DNA from: Octopus sinensis
Taxonomy: Eukaryota
Length of the DNA stretch: 64,000 bases
Assembly (NCBI RefSeq): GCF_006345805.1
Contig: NC_043002.1
Span: 107,198,001 to 107,262,000, forward strand
Direction: 5' to 3'
Below, one piece after another: positions 5,427-61,062 of the stretch (the stretch's first letter is position 1; each line of letters starts with the position of its first letter). The notes under the pieces were generated by a model. It made no database searches and was not told the DNA's origin. It saw nothing but the letters and a program-made list of their open reading frames with translations. A program made the position numbers and the translations under genes.

Positions 5427-6971
5427 TTAATACCTGGTTGACCCTCTTTTAGCATAAATTACTGTTTTTATATGGTTGGGCATTGAATTAACTAGTTTCT
5501 TGCAGGTGTTAGGCGCAATTTTACCCCATTCTTTTCTTAACTTTTGCTACAAATGCTCTTTATTTTTAGTGGTTGTATTCCTGATAGCTACACCAAAGGT
5601 TCTCCATAGGTGCTCGATCGGATTTAGATCGGGACTTTGAGCTGGCCAGTCCATGGGAACAATACCCTGTGTCTCAAGCCATTGATGAGTATTCTTTGCT
5701 GTATGACATGGAGCGTTGTCCTGTTGAAAGATATGGATATGGAAGCACTCCGTCGGTTACGACGACGAGGGTTCCGGTTGATCCGAATCAACGGAACAGC
5801 CTGCTCGTGAAATTAACGTGTAAGTGGCTGAGCACTCCACAGACACGTGCACCCTTAACGTAGTTCTCGGGGATATTCAGCGTGACACAGAGAGTGACAA
5901 GGCCGGCCCCTTGAAATACAGGTACAACAGAAACAGGAAGTAAGAGTGAGAGAAAGTTGTGGTGAAAGAGTACAGCAGGGATCACCACCATCCCCTGCCG
6001 GAGCCTCGTGGAGCTTTTAGGTGTTTTCGCTCAATAAACACTCACAACGCCCGGTCTGGGAATCGAAACCGCGATCCTATGACCGCGAGTCCGCTGCCCT
6101 AACCACTGGGCCATTGTGCCTCCACTTGTTGAAAGATAACACTGTTTTTGGACACTCCTGGATGCAATTTAGCAATTGGTGGCTATAAAACATCTGATAA
6201 CATAGAAGTATAGGGAGCTGAATTCATCCTTCCCTGACGTAAAAATATCTCTCCAGGTCCTGTGGCAGACATGCAGGCCCACACCATGTTAGAACCGCTC
6301 CCATGTTTTAAGGTTGGTACCAGGCATTCAGCCTTAAATGCTTCCCCAAGACTGCGACGCATGAAAGTTGCACCAGATGTACCGAAAACCTGAGTAAAAA
6401 CATGAAAAATAATATTAGCTTTTTATTGGAAACCTTTTTTCATATATTTTAGGCAACAAACCAGTTACATTAAGTTTATATGTTGATTGAATACATGTAC
6501 TATCTTACTTCATAGTTACTTTAATCAGACCATTGCTCACTGGTCCAATTTGAGTGGTTCTTGGCCCACAGAAGACGTTTTTCCATATCCACTTCAGAAA
6601 CCCATGGCCTCTTCCTGGCTTTACAGCTTTTCAGACCGTACTCTACAAGCCTTCTTCAAACAGTTCTGGTTGGTATTTGTGAAGTACTTTGATTCGTTGA
6701 AGTCCGCACAAGGCTCCGACGGTGTTTTTCTCATGCTTCTGAGCGACTGACAGATGATGGATCTATCATCACGAGATGATGTAACCTTTTTTCTACCTGT
6801 TCTTTGTATTGTCTTCACATCTTTTGTCTCTCTGAAGTGGTTGAGAGTCGTTTGCACCGCACATCGAGAACGTTTCATCTTCTGAGCAATTTGCCTTTGA
6901 GACATTCCATTTTCATGATGAGCTACGATTTGACTTCGCTTACATTCACTCAACTCCCTTGTTTTAGGCAT
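5427..6971 (-). pseudogene. Tc1 DD34E transposase, disrupted by a stop, frameshifts and a SINE; one intron at 6390-6508
   Basis: N-terminal HTH MPKTRELSECKRSQIV..GMSQRQIA. First catalytic D in WSD*SNYE. Also KHGSGSNMVWACM, and FQQDNAPCH...WPAQSPDLNPIEHLW with 34 residues between D and E. C-terminus LVNSMP..AKRGSTRY*. Confidence 0.9.
5734..6126 (-). mobile_element. SINE H1/tail A inserted in the Tc1 transposase
   Basis: 12-bp TSD TGTTGAAAGATA at 5722-5733 and 6127-6138; near-identical to 1012-1401. Confidence 0.93.
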
Positions 6972-7271
6972 TTTACTGTTTATTAACTGTATCTACGAAG
7001 TATTTTAGCATAAAACTCTGAAATAATCAATGAAACATAAGTAAATTTTGGCCGTTGGTCTAGCTCATAATTGGTTGCATGTGTACAGTACAGTATAAAA
7101 CCAGTAAATGATGCTAAAGGAGGGTCAACTAGATATTAAAACCAATGTATATTGTGAAATATACCATAATCTACTATGGGCACGAGTTTCATTAACATTG
7201 AGATAGCAGAACCACAAAACATTGGGTTGACCTAATACTTTTGCCCAAGACTGTATATATATATATATATG

Positions 7272-7666
7272 CTAGCAGTATCGCCCGGCGTTGCTCGGGT
7301 TTGTAAGGGAAATAACTATATAAGCATTTTTAGAGATGTAAAGTATAATAGCCATCTCAATATGGCTAACCACAAAGGGGGGTGTTACTGTAGCTTTTTA
7401 CGTTCTGAGATTTAATAATAAATTTTTAGAGAGTTACTTCCCTTATATATGCCAAAAATGCATTAAAAATGGGAAAAATTGATGGTGATTTCTTTTTTAA
7501 ATCGTAGACTCATCGTAGACGCGCGCTAATACCCAGAAGGGCTCGATATGAATCACGACTATAAGATACCCGGTTTTGGTTAAACTGCACCGCAAAATGT
7601 GGGAGTAGTTAGGAATCTAAATCGTAGGAGACAGACAGCACACAACCTCACTTTTATATATAAAGA
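7272..7666 (-). mobile_element. Non-autonomous Helitron
   Basis: Minus strand runs TCTTTATATATAAAA...CCCGAGCAACGCCGGG-CGATACTG-CTAG; same family as 19013-24199. Confidence 0.85.
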
Positions 7667-8617: not shown

Positions 8618-9336
8618 ATAATATATACAGTGGACGCTGGAAAAAGTATAAGTATTTGTGAAGGAAATCTAATTCTCGGCGACAACTATGATTGTCACAC
8701 GCTGACGAGAGGTCAATACCTCGAAACTCGAGTCCGTGTGTATCATAAGTTGAAGACGGGAAGGATGACTTCCCTTTGCAAATACTGACAGGACACAGAA
8801 AGTGTGTCTATGGCCAGCTGGAGGAGTGTGTCCTCCTGGGGCTAAAAACTACAGTAGCATCCACCCTTAGGGGTAGCCATATTGAAATGGCAAATATACG
8901 TCACGATATATATATATATATATATATCTTCTGTATATAAAACTGAAATGCGTTTTTACCGCTTGGAACGCTTTCAATGCCACTACATCCCGTCCGATTC
9001 GCTCCAAAATTTACAGGGACATGTAGAATGAGGTGACGATGCTCGTGGGCTACCTTAGAAATCCCTAGCTTAAAAGGTGTGGTTGCTAGGGGCCATCTTC
9101 CTCACTCACGCTATTTCCTCCTTTCCCTCTCTTACTCCCCTTCATTAATAACTTTGAGAATGCCACTCCCGTTATTAATGTATTCCCCTCAACTCCCTTT
9201 CACTTTCCCCTTATGAGTTCGTCAGGCGGCTTTCTTTGATGTATCTCTTTGCATTCATAGGAGAATTATCATCGCTACCAAACAACACACAATCATGAGA
9301 ACAAATATTATGAATCAGATATTCTTGCGTTCATTT

Positions 9337-19120: not shown

Positions 19121-21910
19121 CTACAACTCATCTAAAGTGTATATATAATCAGGTGAAGTTTCGGCGGATTTCGGAAAGCATGAGGCCTTAAAAGATGCAG
19201 TGTCATGGCAGTCAACAACTGACGCAGGCAGTTTATTCCATGCTTCAAGCAACTCTGAGCGTGAAAAAATGTTTCCGAAAGTCATGGGAGCTGTATTGTT
19301 TCTGACTTTGTAGGCATGTCCACGTGTGTTAGACACATGGAGATCAAAAAGTGTTCAGTGTTGTTGTTGGTGAGGTGGTTGATAACTTTGTGGGTGTTTA
19401 CCAAGTCCGTCGCCAAACGCCGGAGCTTCAGTGAATCCATGCCCAGGGAAACAAGGCGCTCAGAATATGGTAGGTGTCTGATGGAGGGTATGCGTTTGGT
19501 TGCACGTCTCTGGACAGATTCCAGGAGGTCAATGTTCTGTGCAAGATAGGGGTTCCAAACTGATGATGCGAATTCCAAGTGTGGTCGTACCATAGCTGTA
19601 TACATTTTAAATAGATGGCTGGAGAGCGGCTAACAAAAGACCTGCTGAGTGATGCCAAGACACCCTCGGCCTTCCTGACAATCTTAGAGAATGCTTTGAC
19701 CAACGCAGATCACTGCTGACAGTGATGCCTAGGTCACGCTCGCAAGAGGATTTCTTGATATCAGTGTTGTGGAGGGAGTGTGTGAACGCAGGGTTTTTTC
19801 TCCCAAAATGCATGGTGGTACACTTGTCCACAGCCAGTTTCAGTTGCCAGTCTGTGATCCATTGCTGCATTGTGTCTAGGTCTGATTGCAGGAAAGAGTT
19901 GTAGACATCAGGATCTGTCCTCTTGATTTCAAGGTACAGCTTGATGTCGTCTGCATATTTCAATACTGTGGCATTCTTTAAATTGGCATCTATGTCGTTA
20001 ATGTATGCCACAAACAAGAGGGGGCCAAGGACAGATCCCTGTGGTACACCCGATGACATCTCATATGGTGTAGAGTGCTGTCCTAGAACTGTGACTACCT
20101 CCTTTCGGCTGAGGATGAAGGATTTCAACCAGTTAAAAAGGTCATCCCCCACACCCATTGCAGAGAGTTTCACCATAAGCCTTTTGTGTGGCACAGAGTT
20201 GAAAGCCTTAGCAAAGTCAAGGTAGACAACATCCACCCATGAGCCACTGTCAGTAATCTGAGTAATGTCCTCAAGGAACTCGACAAGCTGGTCACTGCAG
20301 CTGGAGTTAGGGACAAATCCATATTGTGAGGGTCGGATGAGACTGTGAGAGCTCCAGAAGTTCCAGAGTGTTTCTCTGACACACGATTCCATCAGTTTTG
20401 CAATACAGCTAGTGAGACTGACTGGGCGATAGTTGACAGGTGATGTGCGGTCGCCCTTTTTGAACAGAGGAATGACACTGGCAGTTTTCCACTGCTCCGG
20501 AGTAGCACCATTGTTGAGACAGTACTGGAAGAAAATAGAAAGCTGGTGTAAAAGGAAGTGCCTGCCACGTTTGAGAAGCAGGTATGTAACTCCATCGAGA
20601 CCAGGGGAGGCATAGTTGCGCTTATTTTGAAGGTGACGTCGCAGCATTGCAGGTGTAATTCCATAGTTGTTATGGAGTTTGCTGTTAGTGATGGTGAAGA
20701 TGGTACTTTTGACTTTCAACAGTGAATATGTTTGCATAGCACTCGGCAATGAGTTCTGCGCATTCTTGGGGTCGTCAGTGATCTGGTTTGTGTGAGGGTT
20801 GCGAAGAGGGCCCACTGGAGAGTGAGGTCTCTGCTTTGAGTGCACATATTTCCAGAAAACCTTGCTGTCAGGATTGGCTGCTATGCACTGTTCAAATTCC
20901 AGCACTGCTTTTTTTGTCACTTGCTTGAGATGGTTGGAGGATTTATTCCGCTTCTTCCTGTTGGTGTCTGATTTATGCAACCTGTATTCCCGTTCAGCAG
21001 TCCGACGTTCCCTCCTGGCAAGTCGGACCGCTGAAGTTTCCCAAATTGCCCTTTTGGGGCGGTTCTTCTTTTTTTGTTTACGTGGCACTGATGCTGCACA
21101 TGCTGCCCATATTGAGTCCAGGATACTCTGGAGTATAGTATTCACATCTCCAGAGTTGTATAGATTCACGCCAGTTTGGTGCTGTAGTTCAGTGTGGTAC
21201 AGGTTCCAATCTGCTCTCTTCCAATCGAAGGAAGCAGATTGGAGATGGTTCAGTTTTTGTTGCCCGCAAGAGCCAGATTGGCGATGATCATAGCATGATC
21301 AGAGTCACCTAGGTTCCTCTCCGTAGTGCAATTGATAACCGCTTCAGGAGTTGTGGTGAAGAGCAGGTCCAAGGTGTTGTCGCCTCTTGTGGAGAGGTGA
21401 CTACTTGTGACCAGTTTGAGTCCAGCACAAGCTCAACAAATCGTTTGCACTCTGTGGCCAATGGAAGGTCTCCCAATCGATCTCAGGATGATTGAAATCG
21501 CCTGCAATAAACACATAAGTGGCTGTTTTCCTGGCAGCAGCTCGGAGGACATTGCAAAGCTGTGTGTCCCGATGGTAACTTGGGGGACGATAAACAACGC
21601 CAAGCAGGAGTGTTGACATGGTCATACGCACGTCACAGAAAAAAACTTCTTCTTGTGATTCGTTCAAATCGGCACAAGGAATTACCAAAAAATTTGAACG
21701 AACGTAGACCATCACACCACCACCACGGCGGTTAGTGCGGTCCTTACGGAAGAGGTTGTACCCCGTAATGTTGAAAACCCCATCACAGAGTAAGGAATGC
21801 GCCCATGTTTCCGTGACAGTGATGAAGTCAGGGTCAACACTTCTGACGTAGACGTTGAACAAATGTATTTTGTTGCATAACTGCGAGCATTTAAGGACAA
21901 CAATTTGTAC
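19121..21910 (-). pseudogene. LINE ORF2 (APE endonuclease + RT), split by several frameshifts
   Basis: APE motifs LNARS, VTETW, RKDRTNRRGGGV, GVVYRPP, IAGDFNHP. RT motifs NYRPVSLTS, YLDFAKAF, SGVPQGSVLGPLLF, YADD. C-terminal VRPHLEFASSVWNP, typical of CR1. Confidence 0.93.
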
Positions 21911-21999
21911 CCTGCACGCAGTTTATGATGGTGTGTAGAGGATGGCAGGTTGTTCTGGCTTAGTTTCCCTGAGTTGCTGTAGTCTTTTTAGTTATTGTG

Positions 22000-22689
22000 G
22001 GTGAGAGCACTCAGACCAGCTGGTATCTCTCTTCCACGTTTCAGCAGTCTTGACAATCTCCAGATTTGTCCATCTTCCCGAAGACTGAAGCTTTCCTGTA
22101 GAGCTGAGTCCTATTCAGGGAAGCCACTACACGTAGCTTCGGACGTACATTGGACGGTAAGCCTGGGCGTGTTCGGAAGGTGTGTCCGATTTTCCCGCCC
22201 AGCTTTAACTGAGGCCAGATGGTAAGAGGTTTGCCTCAGTGGGGTCCGTAAAAGACAACTTGATGAGCCTAGGTTTTGGGCCAGGTCGTCCAAGGCGGAT
22301 AGCACCCGTTGGGGGAACGCAGCCTAGGTCTTTGGCTGAGTTGGCAGCAAAAGCCTGAAGATCAGCCATGTCTTCTGGCACCCCAATGGCAATGACTTCA
22401 TGGGTGGCAGAATCCGCGGTCTTAAATGCGACAAGAGGTACAGGTACAGGGAGGTTCTTTAGCAGAGCATTCCGATAAGACCCCTCATTGTGGAGTCCAA
22501 CCTGAATGGTTGCTTTTATTCCTGCTACTTCCCCTTTTAAAGCACAGATCGATTGTTGCAGTTCTGCAAGAACCGCACTGGTCAATTGGGTTGTTGTTGT
22601 TGCTGCTGTTGCTCTGGTTGTGGTTGATTTTGTTGTTGCTTGTTGTTGTTGAGGTTGTTTGTTGCTGCTGGCTCTGGTTGTGGTTGATT

Positions 22690-22724
<35 letters not shown>

Positions 22725-23118
22725 CTGGTTGTGGTTGATTTTGTTGTTGCTGCTGTTGCTGTTCCGCCTCCTCCACGGGAGTGGCAGGGGGAGACACAAT
22801 CGTCGGTTGTGGAGGCACGCAGGCCTGACACTGAAAAGTCCAAGATTTAAGCTGAACCATCTTCCAGAGTCTATCCATCATAGCATTATGATGGCTCTTT
22901 TTTTGGCCTGGGATCTTCTGAAAGTCCGTGGCACATTGGAGGCAGACAGAGATGAGACATGTCCCACATTCGACCCAGCGATTACGGAACGTATTTTCGG
23001 GTTCCATACAGATGTGGCAGGTGTGATTTTCTGGGCAGTGTTCTATTTTAGAGCAGCGGCCAGTCTTATCGCACGCCGCTATGGATTTCACCATGGCGAT
23101 TCTGTTGGTTCTGGTCAT
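22000..23118 (-). pseudogene. LINE ORF1: Cys-rich PHD-like finger, Q-rich repeat, coiled coil, RRM-like region; frameshifted
   Basis: CHIC..WVECGTC..VCLQC..FQCQAC; then LQQSICALKGEVAGIK and VIAIGVPE..AIRLGR..PRLIKLSF in a second frame; 3' end approximate. Confidence 0.8.
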
Positions 23119-24439
23119 CCGTAGAGACAGAAAATGTAAACAACAATACGATAAAAGTAAAATATAAAATATTTGTTTTTGATTCGTTCTTTTTTGTGTA
23201 TATTCCTTGTTCTTAAATATTGCGTGTGTATATACACATGTTTCGTTCTTCTTTTTGTGTATATTCCTTTTTTTCTTAAATTGCGTGTGTATACATAAAA
23301 GTATTTGTGCGTATAGACACGGAGAAAGTTTGTAAACAGAAATGAAATTTTTGATTTTTTTGCAGTGTAGTCCGTCACATTAAATAGTGTGATTTATTTT
23401 CACTCTGCACGTATATACATGTGTGCTACAAGTATCTATGTATGTATGTATGTCACTGCTTTATAAATTTTGGACGTACTTACTGTCGTTCAACGATTTC
23501 TTTTAACCCTCAACTACACGTGGTGAATTCTTCCATTGTAGATCTGTGGTGGTCATCGTCGTAATATTTTCTCTTTAGTTTCCTCGCCAAATTGATTATA
23601 CCCTAATCAAACCATTTGTTTGTCTACTTGTGAATGTGTCTTTGTTTTAGTAACATTGTATTTTCCTCCTTTTCCTTTTTCATTCCCATATTATATGGAA
23701 CTTCGGTGGACAGCTACTCTAAGACTCCAGCTGCCAGGTCGCCATGTCTAATATGTCTACTCCCACATTTTGCAGTGCAGTTTAACCAAAACCGGGTATC
23801 TTATAGTCGTGATTCATATCGAGCCCTTCTGGGTATTAGCGCGCGTCTACGATGAGTCTACGATTTAAAAAAAAATTTACCATCATTTTTTTCCATTTTT
23901 AATGCATTTTTCGCTATTATATAGGGAAGTAACTCTCTAAAAATGTCTACGATGAGTCAACGATTTAAAAAAAAATTTACCATCATTTTTTCCCATTTTA
24001 ATGCATTTTTTTCGCTATTATATAAGGGAAGTAACTCTCTAAAAATGTCTACGATGCGTCAACGATTTAAAAAAAATTTACCATCATTTTTTTCCATTTT
24101 TAATGCATTTTTTTTGCTAATTTTTGGCTATAACTCTCTAAAAATGCTTATATAGTTATTTCCCTTACAAACCCGAGCAACGCCGGGCGATACTGCTAGT
24201 ACGTTATATAAGTGTGTGTCTGGCCAAGTCAGCAAGCACCGTTCTCACTTCCTTTAACAAACACTGTTATCAATCGACCACAACGATCCAACATTGTTTT
24301 AAAAAAATAGATAATTGACGAGAGAAAGGAGGAGGAGAGAGCGAGAAAGAGAGACAGAGGAAAGATTGAGAGAGATAAAGAGGAAAGAGCCGTTAGAGAG
24401 AGAGTAAAAGGGCTAGAAAGAGAGGAATACATTAACAGA

Positions 24440-30433: not shown

Positions 30434-31101
30434 GCTACCACCACTCTCTTGGCTCTCCTCTCTCACAAATCACATCTCACTCTCCACAGCTATTATTCAC
30501 TGCAACCACCCCCACATATATACTTTGTATCTCCACCTTTTACCCTATTCACTTCTTCGTCACTTCCACCAACCATTACATCATTAGATTCCCATTAAAA
30601 GCACCTTTCTACACAACTTCATACTTTTCTATTTCTCTCACTCCTACTAAACTTAGCAATTAATAAGATTTACCCAACATCTTCACTTTGTCTACATCTC
30701 CAATGTTTCTGTAGTCATCATCAGTGAAGGTACGTGGCTAAGTGGTTAAGACATTCAGCTCCCAGCAGTAAGGTTGTGAGTTCGATCTTGAATGGCATGT
30801 TGTCTCCTTGAGCATGACACTTTATTTTATAGAAAATTACTATTTGTAATCTGTTGTGTCTGGGGAGAGTCATTTTCTTTTTGTGCCTTACTATTTCTAA
30901 ATCTCATAATGAGAGATATTCAACAACAGTACTCTAGAGTACAGGTTGTTTGCCAACATAACATGGCAGTCCTGGTTTAGAATGAATGTTGCTGTAATTT
31001 AGCCCCAGGAGACATCGTCTCCAACTGGCTATATGACATGATTTGTGTCCTTATATTTTCAAACAAGGGAATCTAGCACCCCCACTCAACTCGAAACAAT
31101 A

Positions 31102-31146
31102 TCTGTCTATCGTGATTCCTGGGTTATTTCCCTTCATCAGCACAGA
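31102..31146 (-). ncRNA. Minimal type I hammerhead ribozyme motif, degenerate copy
   Basis: TCTGTG CTGATGA A GGG-AAATAA-CCC A GGAA T-CACG-A TA GACAGA; GAAA is changed to GGAA. Confidence 0.6.
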
Positions 31147-31502
31147 ATAATTGTTCGGCTAGAGGTGGCGCTGCCAATTCCTGTTTGAAATATATAGTTT
31201 TCAAAGTGACACTGATCTATTAATTAGAAAATCACTATTTGTAAATCTCCCAACAAGAGATATTCGGCAACAGTACTCTAGAGTAAAGGTTGTTTGCCAA
31301 CATAACATGACAGTCCTGGTTTAAGACGAATGTTACTGTAATTTAGCCCCAGGAGACATCGTTTCCAGCTGGCTATACGACACGATCTGTGTCCTTATAT
31401 TTTCGAACAAGGGCATTTAGCACCCCAACTCAATTCAACTATATTGAAAACTATATACTTCTAACAGGAATTTAGCAGCACCACCTCTAACCGAACAATT
31501 AT

Positions 31503-31547
31503 TCTGTGCTGAGGAAAGGAAATAACCTAGAAATCGTGATACACAGA
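31503..31547 (+). ncRNA. Minimal type I hammerhead ribozyme motif, intact core
   Basis: Stem I TCTGTG/CACAGA, core CTGAGGA, stem II AGG/CCT, GAAA, stem III T-CGTG-A, cleavage triplet AUA. Confidence 0.75.
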
Positions 31548-32760
31548 TATTGTTTTGTGCTGAGTGAGGGTGCTTAATGCCCTTGTTCGGAAATATAAGG
31601 ACACAGATCATGTTGTATAGCCAGCTGGAGACGATGTCTCCTGGAGTTAAATTACAGCAACATTCGTCCTAAACCAGGAGTGTCATGTTATGTTGACAGA
31701 CAATCTTTACGCTACTTTATTTTATGTTGCTCCAGTCCACTCAGCTGGCAAAAATGAGTTCTACCTGTATTTCAAAGGGCCAGCCTTGTCACACTCTGTC
31801 GTGTTGAATCAACCTGAGAACTATGTTAAGGATGTGTGTGTCTAGGAGCGCTCAGCCACTTCGGCTGGAACCCTTGTCATTGTAAGTGATGGAGTACCAA
31901 TATAATATGTAATGTAAGATACCCTTATCACTTTAACTTTCACATTTTCATGCTTGCATGAGTTGATGAAATTCATGGAGACAGATTTTGTAGGGCCAGA
32001 TGCCCTTTTGTCCTGCCAGCAACCCCTCACCCATTTCTAACTGTCACCTGTGGCTGGACATGTTTTCATGGAAGATTGAAAATGAACACCACTACTTGTG
32101 TGATGGTGATGCACATTTACAAGCATTGTGTTGCATCAAGACGACACACACACACATTTTGGCACTCTGTTGGTTATGACGATGAGGGTTCCAGCTGATC
32201 CAATCAACAGGACAGCCTGTTTGTGAAATTAATGCACGAGAGGTGGAGCACTCTACAGACAAGTGAACCGTTACATAGTTACGGGGACATAAACACATCA
32301 ACTCCAGTTGTCAAGTGGTGTTAGGGGACAAACTCAAAGATACACACACACACACACACAACAGGCTTCTTTCCACTCACAAGGCTTTGGTCAACCCGAA
32401 GCTATAGTAGAAGACACTTGCCCAAGGTGTCATGCAGTGGGACTGAACCCGGAACCATGTGGTTGGGAAACAAACTTCTTACTACCACTAGTGCAGCTAG
32501 AGTGTCTACCGCCTGGGGTGGCCCTTCCGTTTGCCACCCCTGAACCTCACACTATACTTTATACACACTTTTGACAAGTTGTGGTGCACCTGAGCATAAT
32601 TTCATTATATATTATAAAAAACAAGGCGGCGAGCTGGCAGAACCGTTAGCACACCGGGTGACATGCTTAGCGGTGTTTCGTCTGCTGTTATGTTCTGAGT
32701 TCAGCCAAGGAGAAATTTCAGCGGACTTTTGAAAATGACAAAAAAAAAATCTGCAACCAT

Positions 32761-33165: not shown

Positions 33166-33947
33166 TTGTAGCAAAGGCTAAGGAAGATCCATTGATCATT
33201 TACACAAAGAGTTACTGATTTGTAAAACATTTTAACAACTCAGGTTTTAGTGTGAAACAGCTGCACTATCAAGCTACAGTGGTTCACAATTATGCTGCTC
33301 TACTTAGCAAAATCAGCCTTCGAAGATGTACAGTAAATGTATTTATAAATATATTACATATCTACAGATGTGCGTACATACCTGCCTGCATGCATATATA
33401 CATATGTGCATACATGCTTGTGTACATGTGTAGTTACATGTGAAGTAGTAAGATAGAAACTGTGCGTGGATGTGTGGGTGTGTAAAAGTAAGATAGAGGA
33501 TAAGTATGTGTATGCAAAATAATAAGATAAAGACTGTATGAAAGGGAGACAGATATACAGGTAGGTTTAGAAAGAGTTCACCTTGGTGTAGGTAGGTTAT
33601 TTTGCAATGTTTCTGGATTTGATCTCGAAACCTGGCCCTAGAACATCGGTTTTCTTTAAACATACGTACATATATACATACATACATGCATGCACTGATA
33701 CATACACACATGCATGCACATATATATACAGGCATGCACATACACATACATGCATGTACACCTACATACATATATGCAAACTGAAACTAGGTGTTTGTCT
33801 TCTTGGGACCCAAGTTTCACACCTACTTTCTTCAGTTTTACCTGAAGATCTCAACAAGCATGAATCTATAGTTCTATATTTAAGAGATTAGGAATTATGT
33901 ACAATATTTACATTTGACGGATATTTGTCCTCATCTTGTTTGTTGTT

Positions 33948-33993
33948 AACACAACGTTTCGGCTGATATACCCTCCAGCCTTCATCAGGTGTC
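33948..33993 (-). ncRNA. Minimal type I hammerhead ribozyme motif
   Basis: GACAC CTGATGA A GGCTG-GAGGGTATAT-CAGCC GAAA CG T T GTGTT; stem III is reduced to the palindrome AACGTT. Confidence 0.75.
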
Positions 33994-34235
33994 TTGGGCA
34001 AATTTTGAAACTGGGTTCTCATTCCTAAGGTATTTTTCAATGTTGTTGTTATAATTATTATTATTCAGGTCACTGCCTGGAATCGAACTTGGAATCTTGG
34101 GGTTAGTAGCCTGCGCTCTTAACCACTACGCGCCATATGCCCATGAGTTCAATTCCAGGCAGTGACCTGAATAATAATAATAATAACTTTGAAAAATACC
34201 TCAGGAATGAGAACCCAGGTTCGAAATTTCCCCAA

Positions 34236-34281
34236 GACATCTGATGAAGGCTGGAGGGTATATCAGCCGAAACATTGTTAA
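34236..34281 (+). ncRNA. Hammerhead motif, degenerate second copy
   Basis: CTGATGA A GGCTG..CAGCC GAAAC is intact; stems I and III are damaged (CG>CA, 2-nt deletion). Confidence 0.55.
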
Positions 34282-34464
34282 CAACAAACAAGATGAGGAC
34301 AAATATCCATCAAATGTAAATAATGTAAATAATGTATCATGAAATTAGTTGTGAGATAAACTCTCAGTTTCAATAAAAAAAGTCATATCCCCTGTATGTA
34401 TTGAGTACTCCTTTCTCATTCATTCAATATAAAGCAATGTATTTATGTGTGTGTGTGTTTGTGT

Positions 34465-42096: not shown

Positions 42097-42320
42097 AACT
42101 ATCATGTGATGTCAAAACAAGGAAACACATGTACGCACACATGACAGGCTTTTTTCAGTTTCCATCTACCAAATCCACTCACAAGGTTTTGGCCAGACTG
42201 GAGCTATTGTAGAAGACACATACTTGTTGAAAGGACTGAACTTAAAACCCTGTGGATGGAAAGCAGACTTCTTAACCATACAGCCATATCTCTCAGATTG
42301 CTTTTTGGAATCAGTACAAT

Positions 42321-42725
42321 AGGCGCAGGAGTGGCTGTGTGGTAAGTAGCTTGCTTACCAACCACATGGTTCCGGGTTCAGTCCCACTGCGTGGCACCTT
42401 GGGCAAGTGTCTTCTACTATAGCCTCGGGCTGACCAATGCCTTGTGAGTGGATTTGGTAGACGGAAACTGAAAGAAGCCCATCGTATATATATATATGTG
42501 TGTGTGTGTGTGTGCATGTATGTTTGTGTGTCTGTGTTTCTCCCCCTAGCATTGCTTGACAACCGATGCTGGTGTGTTTATGTCCCCGTCACTTAGCGGT
42601 TCGGCAAAAGAGACCGATAGAATAAGTACTGGGCTTACAAAGAATAAGTCCCGGGGTCGAGTTGCTCGACTAAAGGCGGTGCTCCAGCATGGCCGCAGTC
42701 AACTCATTGAAACAAGTAAAAGAAT
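42321..42725 (+). mobile_element. SINE H2 (young)
   Basis: Family match; a degraded minus partial copy lies at ~42140-42290. Confidence 0.9.
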
Positions 42726-47457: not shown

Positions 47458-47557
47458 NNNNNNNNNNNNNNNNNNNNNNNNNNNNNNNNNNNNNNNNNNN
47501 NNNNNNNNNNNNNNNNNNNNNNNNNNNNNNNNNNNNNNNNNNNNNNNNNNNNNNNNN
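47458..47557. other. Assembly gap (100 N)
   Basis: Run of N. Confidence 1.
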
Positions 47558-54016: not shown

Positions 54017-54360
54017 CTTTATAATGTAACACATTCACCGGTAAAATTTCCACTTATTTCTTATTTTTATTGTCCTAAAATTTTTGTTGCATCTTGCAAC
54101 CTTTCCAATAATCTTGACTCTCAAGACTATTGAAAAGGTTGCAAGACGCAACAAAAATTTTAGGACAATAAAAATAAAAAATAAGTGGAAATTTCACCAG
54201 TGAGTGTGTTACATTATAAGGCACAAAAAGAAAATGACTCTCCCCAGACACAACAGAATATGCTTCAACACACAAACTCATATAAAGAATCTTGCAAACC
54301 AAATCCAAAAACGAAATATAACTGCACTAGTGCTGTTATATTTCGTCTTTGGATTTGATT
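54017..54360. mobile_element. Foldback (Penelope pLTR-like) element with a degenerate hammerhead in each arm
   Basis: ~100-bp arms centred at ~54119; CTA TTGAAAA G GTTGC-AAGAC-GCAAC aAAA AT T T TAG; extra hairpin at 54301-54356. Confidence 0.65.
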
Positions 54361-59139: not shown

Positions 59140-60660
59140 CATCGTTTCAATGTTTGCTTCACCATACATGGACAGATGGGCATGTCTTCTCCAGCATCCC
59201 TATCACTAATCTTCACACTCCCTTGTCATCTCCATGGTGTCAATATCCTGGTTTTCATCACTTTCTTTCTTGTCTTCCAAGGTCTCCTGCTTCAACAGGG
59301 ACCATCCTCTTTGAGTGCCCTGTACTATTTCATGCAGCTATCATCCTCCATACAATCACTTGTACAGCCTTTTCTCTCATTACATCTTAAATCCAGTTTT
59401 CATTCCCGCTTCTTTATGCCCACTAACATTGTACATCCAGCTGATCATGTTCACTTCATTTCTTTCTAGTCTTCACAACTCTAACTTATTAGCTTACCTG
59501 TGATTCCAGTACACCTCTTCTGCATCAATACGTTACACTGAGTACACCATACAGAATTTCTACAGAAAATTGTCTTTCCTACTTACTAAAACTTTAGTCT
59601 TCACTAAAGAATATTAGAGAGGTGATGGTAGTAAACCTGGAAAGTTATGGTAGATAATGTGAGGGGTTGAATAATGCTATCCCTTGTTACACAGGTAGAA
59701 TAGTACAGTGGATAGGAAAGAGGATGAGTGAGAGGTCAGATGGTAGCATAGGGGTCAGTTGATGGAAATATATATTTATTGGGTCTCTCGCCAATTCTTA
59801 TATATCCCAACCTCCATGATTGCCATCAATATTCTAATCACAGTTTTTGCCATTATTGCACTGACAGGTATGTCTTTTCTTGCTGTCAATCTCACCAATT
59901 GTCATCTCCTGTGAAGTTCAGTTTCTTGAGATTAATCATCATCTCATCAAATCTCATGTTTTTCTAGATCTACCTCATACCCAGGCCCCATCTACTCGAA
60001 ATGCTCAGTATATGTTTACACTACTGTGCTGGGCACCCTCCATCTGCATCACATACCTCTATTAACACCGTCTTCTCTCTTTCATATTTTGGTTCTTATT
60101 CTGATTATTCCCTCAGTTTATTCATGGACCCCAATATTACAGAATATGTTCACTTCATGTTGTTTTTCTTATCACTTTGATCACTTCACTTTGACCGACC
60201 AGTCCGTCAGGCGTCCATTTGACACCGCTGGTCACAGCACGCTGTCCACTCCTCTCTGGATCGCGCCTTTCTCATCCACGTGATCCCAATCGTCTTCTTG
60301 AAATCGTCACTCCACCGTCGTGGAGGTCTTCCGGGTGGTCTTTTCCGCTCACGCGGGTACCACTCAACTACTGCGTGCGTCCACCGATTATCGGTGAACC
60401 GGGCGACGTGTCCAGCCCATCTATACTTGCTGCTTCTATACTTTTTCTTATAGCTGTCACAATTGTTCCATATTCAAGGCCTTCACCTCACTACCACACA
60501 GCATTACACAGTCAGCTCTTCAACCTGAGAGACGTTCGGGGAGACATTGCTTCTGTTATCAGAAGAGGCCAATATCTTCCTAAACCATTCTTACTCTGGT
60601 TGCTCTGCATACAGTACACCCACCTCCTTTGCTCATTACAACAGCTAAGTAACAAATATT
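59140..60660 (-). mobile_element. Degraded RTE ORF relics (~59140-59480, ~59900-60170, ~60440-60660)
   Basis: Fragments such as RLERNEVNMISWMYNVS, GRSRKT, CYL..SKGGGC, PLLITE and MLCGSE; stops present. Confidence 0.6.
60171..60435 (-). mobile_element. Young RTE-clade LINE 3' end
   Basis: KYRWAGHVARFTDNRWTHAVVEWYPRERKRPPGRPPRRWSDDF...MDA*, then a GTCAAAGTGAAGTGATCAAAGTGAT tail. Confidence 0.88.
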
Positions 60661-60665
60661 GATAT

Positions 60666-61050
60666 GTAGTAAAGATTGTTTGCCAACATAACATGGCAGT
60701 CCTGGTTTAGGACTAATGTTGCTGTAATTTAGCCCCAGGAGACATCGTCTCCAGCTGGCTATATGACACGATCTGTGTCCTTATATTTTCGAACAAAGGA
60801 ATCTAACCTCTTCTGATAACAGATGCAATGTTTCCCTGAACTTCTCTCAGGCTGAAGAGCTGATTGTTCGAAAATATAAGGACGCAGATTGTGTTGTATA
60901 GCCAGCTGGAGACGATGTTTCCTGGGGCTAAAATTACAGCGACATTAGTCCTAAATCAGGACTGCCATGTCATGTTGGCAAACAATCTTTACTACAAAGT
61001 ACAGTTGCTGAATATCTCTTGTTGCGAGATTTTAAAAATAGTAATTTTCT
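60666..61050. mobile_element. Second insertion of the 30.8-kb Penelope/retrozyme-like family (foldback, no ribozyme retained)
   Basis: 12-bp TSD AAATATTGATAT (60654-60665, 61051-61062); same terminus AAATAGTAATTTTCT. Confidence 0.82.
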
Positions 61051-61062
61051 AAATATTGATAT

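Follow-up and report, generated by a model that had tools for sequence, protein, structure and literature searches.

Within a 64,000-nucleotide stretch of Octopus sinensis DNA (the window), a SINE-like repeat is interrupted by an insert of 883 bases (30831–31713) with a hammerhead ribozyme motif. The locus raises the question of whether this insert is an independent self-cleaving element or part of a larger one, and by which machinery it was copied. A sequence-only reading had proposed a non-LTR retrozyme with a tandem monomer of about 345 bp, mobilised by Penelope-like elements. Repeat comparison across the window confirmed the insert between perfect 12-bp target-site duplications, and a SINE-like relative at 45.0–45.3 kb was collinear through the insertion site without the insert. 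The left head of the host repeat contained A- and B-box-like motifs (by eye), ARAGORN found no tRNA, and the 3' part of the repeat shared approximately 80% identity with four further copies in the window. Many SINE-like copies, long microsatellites and a gap of 100 N (47458–47557) were also present in the window. The coordinates of the features are given in Table 1.

Table 1. Features of the insert, its host repeat and its relatives in the window.
Feature	Position	Strand	Remarks
Host tRNA-SINE-like repeat	30725–31900	+	Interrupted by the insert
Left target-site duplication	30819–30830		12 bp, AT-rich, 100% identical to 31714–31725
Right target-site duplication	31714–31725		Partner of 30819–30830
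Copy A, full unit	30831–31225	-	Comprises spacer, TATA-like box, hammerhead, structured core and 53-nt tail; outer end, at site 2, is its 3' end
Nested 38-bp piece in the tail of copy A	30850–30887		Later arrival; 13-bp duplication 30837–30849/30888–30900 with one mismatch
Extended type I hammerhead, copy A, damaged	31095–31155	-	Predicted cut between 31108 and 31107
TATA-like box, copy A	31191–31196	-	56 nt ahead of the hammerhead core
Copy B	31226–31436	-	5'-truncated, tandem to A, no hammerhead
53-nt tail	31227–31279	-	Between recurrent 3' ends, site 1 (near 31280) and site 2 (near 31227)
Junction filler, 7 nt	31437–31443		Head-to-head B/C joint; repeats letters from the start of copy C
Copy C	31444–31713	+	Inverted; TATA region to site 1, no tail
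Extended type I hammerhead, copy C	31494–31554	+	Predicted cut after 31541
Structured core	31574–31713	+	Four predicted hairpins; found in each of the five family copies and in the sister family
Sister family F	8630–8906	+	TATA-like box, canonical extended hammerhead, palindromic stem III and the common core; 3' end at site 1
Second insertion	60666–61050		Two head-to-head truncated copies, 60666–60805 (-) and 60864–61050 (+), no hammerhead

Direct repeats in the insert comprised 203 nt at a spacing of 344 (89%) and 27 nt at a spacing of 395. The proposed period of about 345 bp with a foreign piece of about 50 bp was therefore borne out: the period is 344 bp, and the 51-bp excess consists of the 38-bp nested piece and a 13-bp near-perfect duplication. 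An inverted partial copy had also been described, and was found as arms at 30935–31177 and 31472–31714 (86%). The insert consists of 1.6 head-to-tail copies (B–A) and one inverted copy (C) of a 344-base unit with a G+C content of 0.38–0.40, in the order TATA-like box, hammerhead, structured core, site 1, 53-nt tail, site 2 and short spacer. The tandem of hammerhead-bearing monomers was real as a tandem, but it holds only 1.6 copies and a single, damaged hammerhead. Copy B starts 12–18 nt past the position that corresponds to the predicted cut. The piece nested in copy A had a 44-nt match (97.7%) at 54217–54260. This match belongs to a near-perfect 200-bp palindrome (54019–54260) whose right arm extends by approximately 41 nt, the extension being the nested piece; this piece may represent the tail of another Penelope-type family that inserted by itself in copy A, with a 13-bp duplication. 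Further self-inverted repeats were located at 42147–42479 and 54297–54360.

The copies of the insert differed pairwise by 7–14% and from their majority by 2–8%, with transitions at 27 of 30 differences, which indicates an old insertion. No reading frame was conserved among the six family copies, so a coding role of the unit was rejected, in line with the earlier description of the insert as non-coding. A profile of the six copies retrieved only one further, weak match in the window (60 nt at 7338–7397, E 3e-4).

The hammerhead that had been located at 31503–31547 in copy C was recovered with its parts at these coordinates: an intact CUGANGA and GAAA, a 6-bp stem I, a 3 × 1 internal loop and a short stem III. 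The strict type I descriptor matched at three positions in the window (8702, 31509 and 33988) compared with a mean of 0.01 in 100 shuffles, and only one of 2000 shuffles of the insert had any match. Pattern scans for more loci returned none in metagenome contigs, viral contigs and prokaryote genomes. Rfam, which had been suggested as a check, did not recover the hammerhead: nothing in the window reached the gathering score, and at 29.5–33 kb no hammerhead was reported up to E 5, the 15 matches there being weak ones to models of miRNAs, snoRNAs or viral UTRs and lying almost entirely on microsatellites. The motif had been called minimal, but stem I continues past the 3 × 1 loop into a distal stem (31494–31499 paired with 31549–31554), which makes it an extended type I hammerhead. 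The extended form is needed for the monomer activity of newt-type ribozymes (PMC6155905). In copy A, A13 is replaced by G (GGAA for GAAA) and the 1.1–2.1 pair, the first of stem I, is broken. The 10.1–11.1 pair of stem II, for which G10.1–C11.1 is the conserved pair (PMC4209133), is A-A in copies A and C in the register given by alignment with the sister family. The change in stem II from GGG/CCC to AGG/CCT, previously taken as preserved pairing, is present but consists of two transitions, the class to which most differences belong, and carries no sign of selection. It was discarded as evidence of covariation because it consists of transitions in a CpG context and because T at this place also occurred in the contigs listed.

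Two consecutive units with a complete hammerhead are absent at the locus. Since the intact hammerhead of copy C stands alone on the other strand, that of copy A is damaged and copy B has none, no transcript of the locus carries two same-strand hammerheads, and the locus cannot release a monomer, contrary to the excision that had been envisaged. With approximately 5% decay per copy and at most one same-strand hammerhead, the locus is most likely inert now.

Sister family F was 63–65% identical to the insert family in the core and had the same layout; its 3' end at site 1 abuts a TA microsatellite, and its 10.1–11.1 pair is G-C. In the hammerhead fold of A, C and F, both sides had changed in 10 of 18 pairs, a number reached by none of 500 shuffles and compared with 0–2 in slid controls, a count based on these three sequences, from which the structure itself was drawn. 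In modelled self-dimers, the stem III segments of C and F were predicted to pair between molecules. Of the hammerheads in the window, the fully canonical one of family F would be the most promising to assay for cleavage. An inverted element at 33894–34333 (84% arms) carried a minimal Penelope-type hammerhead in each arm, intact at 33988 (-) and decayed at about 34240 (+), and was unrelated in sequence to the insert family; it suggests that such elements were once active in this genome.

The TATA-like box, which may be a promoter, keeps its distance from the core motif of the hammerhead, with 57 nt in copy C (31452–31457) and 55 nt in the sister family. The 140-nt structured core occurred six times in the window and in none of 100 shuffles. 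Both sides had changed in 5 of 30 pairs of its consensus, and the predicted structure is tentatively put forward as a candidate recognition element for a reverse transcriptase.

The second insertion, at 60.7 kb, was flanked by its own 12-bp duplication (60654–60665 and 61051–61062), and the 12-mer duplications of both loci were A/T at 11 of 12 positions. Together with its two copies, D and E, the outer ends fell into two classes 53 nt apart: site 2 was the end of A and D, and site 1 that of C, E and F. Structure prediction placed site 1 in a hairpin loop that is AC-rich in D; D itself was predicted to fold no better than shuffles. The centre of the second insertion (60807–60867) contained an inverted 61-bp copy (90%) of the flank at 60508–60568, 100 bp away, which suggests a template switch to local DNA during the joining of the two halves. 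At least six opposite-strand joints were found in contigs (see below) at differing positions, indicating that the inversions are made per insertion. The marks of Penelope-type insertion present here are a partial tandem, an inverted 5'-truncated head-to-head copy, a one-sided tail, an AT-rich target and a short duplication. The layout described for Penelope insertions comprises a partial tandem, an inverted 5'-truncated copy, a one-sided tail and 8–10-bp duplications (PMC8557442; PMC3846280; PMC8969392). Mobilisation of the Penelope type, as first proposed, was thus upheld by the same two ends at a second locus, the tail and the head-to-head inversions at variable junctions. Classical L1 twin priming was rejected, since sequence in the inverted arm is duplicated and not partitioned, and a MITE was rejected on account of the unequal ends and variable centres.

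It is very unlikely that the hammerhead is a dead relic in a unit spread in a SINE-like or MITE-like manner by another enzyme, for example a LINE of the window. Such a LINE with reverse transcriptase (RT) and apurinic endonuclease is available at 19.6–21.9 kb, and the non-standard 10.1–11.1 pair would suit a relic. This reading is opposed by the lack of a poly(A) or simple-repeat tail, by the two fixed internal 3' ends, by inverted arms that duplicate rather than partition sequence and have unequal ends and variable centres, and by a hammerhead fold kept between families that are 63–65% identical. In the LINE (19610–23379, minus strand), a break separates a 563-aa RT frame (RVT_1, E 2e-36) from the apurinic endonuclease frame, and open frames lie upstream. 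Additionally, Tc1/mariner-type transposase fragments (DDE_3 and HTH matches), interrupted by a SINE, were observed at 5550–6992 on the minus strand.

The reading that we consider probable is that of a decayed unit of non-LTR-retrozyme type, approximately 350 nt long with an extended hammerhead, copied in trans by a Penelope-like RT and endonuclease; a partner Penelope-like element of the family is assumed. In purified form, the Anolis enzyme nicks both strands of AT-rich DNA and extends them, starts reverse transcription at two internal positions in an AC-rich stem-loop, and does not require hammerhead cleavage in vitro (PMC11167929). In the proposed sequence of events, a transcript through tandem units would be bound at the structured core, and the target would be nicked on both strands 12 bp apart. 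One nicked strand would prime cDNA synthesis at site 2, running for 1.6 units in the present case, and the other would prime at site 1, running for 0.8 unit; the two cDNA products would then be joined head to head. The family hammerhead is predicted to have cut slowly, or as a dimer through the palindromic stem III, trimming the 5' end of the transcript. The start of copy B near the predicted cut site, a single case, hints that the template's 5' end was produced by the ribozyme.

Evidence for the family beyond the locus was drawn from public data. The segment 30990–31440 was compared at 80% likeness with two raw RNA runs of organism B and two contig sets of organisms C and A; 4 of the 24 listed runs were used, and the RNA runs possibly come from a different species than the insert. 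The hammerhead had been treated as that of a family, and it was indeed conserved beyond the locus, as the family majority restored the core and the fold covaried with family F. The majority state stood at 92–96% for GAAA, at 67–86% for the palindromic stem III, and for stem I at 94–98% of contig depth and 57–61% in RNA, so that both damaged positions of copy A are intact in the majority. Position 11.1 was G, opposite A, in 59–73% of depth, and the A-G at 10.1–11.1 is a reading from 40 of 162 difference rows, none of which concerned 10.1. Because this G opposite A departs from the conserved G10.1–C11.1, the family ribozyme may, judged by its sequence, be weak or dead. Contig depth was not taken as copy number.

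The RNA runs contributed 1743 and 1558 aligned reads, approximately 130 per million, mostly less than 90% alike. Their depth per direction was 3'-biased, at about 400–640 in the core, 50–95 in the hammerhead and 10–36 in the region of the TATA-like box and spacer. Loose read ends accumulated at 31282 (320 and 232), and depth stepped down across the tail. A variant at 31137, likely of a single locus, was split 49:35 between read directions; the libraries therefore look unstranded, and strand balance was set aside. A6C or A17G occurred in 36–49% of RNA reads over the core, compared with at most 1.1% of contig depth, and A6C is reported to be a low-activity change of the hammerhead (PMC3088659). 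This excess in RNA points to a small number of host transcripts, bearing dead copies, as the bulk of the family RNA; it may also be a species difference, as the runs stem from different organisms. RNA of the family probably arises by passive read-through within host transcripts.

These data also bear on a working circular-RNA retrozyme, in which tandem transcripts would self-cleave to monomers of approximately 350 nt that are ligated, the circle would serve as template, and the 1.6-unit tandem would reflect more than one round. We regard this as improbable for the family. The size, the G+C content of 38–40%, the extended hammerhead and the long duplication fit the circle-making elements of mussel, coral and axolotl (PMC7229834), the one-period span folded better than 98 of 100 shuffles (z -1.96), and a few RNA reads span the junction from tail to start. 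However, RNA depth along the unit was uneven by 10- to 40-fold with its minimum at this very junction, and the junction was also present in a contig of a presumed DNA run. No reads piled up with their ends at the predicted cut site in the fragmented RNA-seq, a kind of data that does not test cleavage, and none of the 15 joints listed out of 90 had RNA reads, in libraries that may have lost small non-polyadenylated circles. The frequency of A6C or A17G in RNA likewise speaks against this reading, and the end of copy B shortly past the predicted cut fits a linear template that had been cut, a single case.

The junction is also central to whether the short unit stands alone. At the locus, 20 nt connect the tail to the TATA region; the same junction with eight additional bases was found in 6 and 5 reads of the RNA runs and in one contig, which indicates that the short unit is inherited, likely with a length of 352 nt. 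Positions 31191–31214 with the eight extra bases form a 17-nt imperfect palindrome. On the strand opposite the hammerhead, the junction presents a TATA-like box, 20 bp and an initiator-like TCACT, a post hoc observation that may be due to chance; a rotifer pLTR has the same spacing from TATA to initiator (PMC3846280). At 31211, at least two contigs departed from the unit, continuing with unaligned stretches of 68 and 77 letters, and numerous copies may extend into different sequence, perhaps that of a coding element.

The unit could be the pseudo-LTR (pLTR) of a coding Penelope-like element, its copies being 5'-truncated stumps and the short junction a minor deleted derivative, which we consider unlikely. 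It would account for the 3'-biased abundance, the low depth at the junction and the contigs leaving at 31211. In rotifers, pLTRs of Penelope elements carry a TATA box and a 5' palindrome and occur as solo or captured insertions (PMC3846280), and in Xenopus, Penelope-like elements made up 21 of the 22 that matched, the match lying within pLTRs (bioRxiv 10.64898/2026.07.22.740005). Against a pLTR, no frame was kept from the hammerhead through the tail, whereas pLTR and tail cover the start of the ORF in the two cases described; the hammerhead is extended rather than of the minimal pLTR form; and the junction from tail to start recurs in other copies. The adjoining Penelope ORF with RT and GIY-YIG, for which a search had been proposed, did not appear, as GIY-YIG (Pfam) was found in none of the 211 non-low-complexity window frames of at least 62 aa, and the only RT in the window adjoins the apurinic endonuclease domain of the LINE. 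An LTR pair with an internal region and a PBS/PPT-type layout was absent at the insert.

Taken as one locus, the insert is a commonplace decayed repeat of an animal genome rich in repeats. The retrozyme–Penelope link in animals has rested so far on co-occurrence and pLTR homology. The two fixed ends with the tail and inverted copy offer a short, testable substrate for a Penelope enzyme, the pair of sister families marks the RNA structures that matter, and the A-G at the base of stem II allows a cheap test of hammerhead tolerance. On the boldest reading, which we consider unlikely, the two sister families share a self-contained RNA cassette (TATA-like box, extended hammerhead, four-hairpin core and two fixed RT start sites) and insert with the whole Penelope signature. 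If true, this would provide direct anatomical evidence of retrozyme copying by Penelope machinery through two-ended internal priming and would map the cis element recognised by the enzyme, and the larger of the families would carry a natural working A-G hammerhead that still makes circular RNA.

Among known systems, non-LTR retrozymes are non-coding units of 150–450 bp with a G+C content below 45% and an extended type I hammerhead, for which Penelope-like elements have been proposed as mobilisers (PMC7229834). The insert resembles the metazoan retrozymes of that paper, especially the 350–390-bp units of Mytilus, in its size, G+C content and non-coding unit, its extended type I hammerhead with a short palindromic stem III, its duplication longer than 4 bp and its head-to-tail junction. 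The architecture of the canonical-type retrozyme hammerhead, a 6-bp helix I with a looped extension and a 4-bp helix II, is present and covaries with family F, while the 10.1–11.1 pair is A-A here and A-G in the family majority. The insert differs from the retrozymes of PMC7229834 in its 1.6 tandem copies with one hammerhead and in the A-G at 10.1–11.1 of its family majority, and additionally in carrying an inverted copy, a tail and fixed 3' ends; the main text of that paper does not use the word 'inverted'.

A preprint by Li, Clavereau and Pollet (2026; bioRxiv 10.64898/2026.07.22.740005) argues for non-LTR retrozymes as non-autonomous Penelope derivatives, based on co-occurrence and pLTR homology in 31 vertebrates, three insects and a coral. 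Its conclusion on origin and mobilisation is the same as ours. Monomer and dimer derivatives are common there, and its definition of an active retrozyme, two consecutive complete hammerheads, excludes the insert. Of nine predicted Xenopus retrozymes, one cleaved in vitro and eight did not. The word 'tail' does not occur in the preprint text. No description of the present family, or of the tail-and-inversion signature in retrozymes, was found in the papers searched; subscription papers may contain such a signature, and these, repeat databases or supplements may contain the family or the A-G variant.

Endonuclease-positive Penelope-like insertions (PMC3846280; PMC8557442) share the tandem, the inverted copy, the tail and the AT-rich target with the insert. 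In Penelope-like elements the hammerhead lies upstream of two RT start sites, as in the unit, and a non-autonomous form, MRC1, is known (PMC3846280; PMC8557442; PMC11167929). In contrast to such insertions as these sources describe them, the insert has no ORF, its tail measures 53 nt rather than 30–40, and its duplication 12 bp rather than 8–10. The minimal Penelope hammerhead (PMC4209133) is likewise type I, with an unstable palindromic helix III and predicted dimeric cleavage. It has a helix I of 4–5 bp, a helix II of 7–8 bp and G10.1–C11.1 after one unpaired base, whereas the insert hammerhead has a helix I of 6 bp followed by a loop and distal stem, a short helix II and no G10.1–C11.1. Unlike the insert, the element at 33988 fits the minimal form. 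The kind of element is already described from many animals (PMC7229834; bioRxiv 10.64898/2026.07.22.740005), and our verdict is that the insert adds a new member, now decayed, to the known hammerhead repeats of the non-LTR retrozyme type, which are non-autonomous and Penelope-mobilised.
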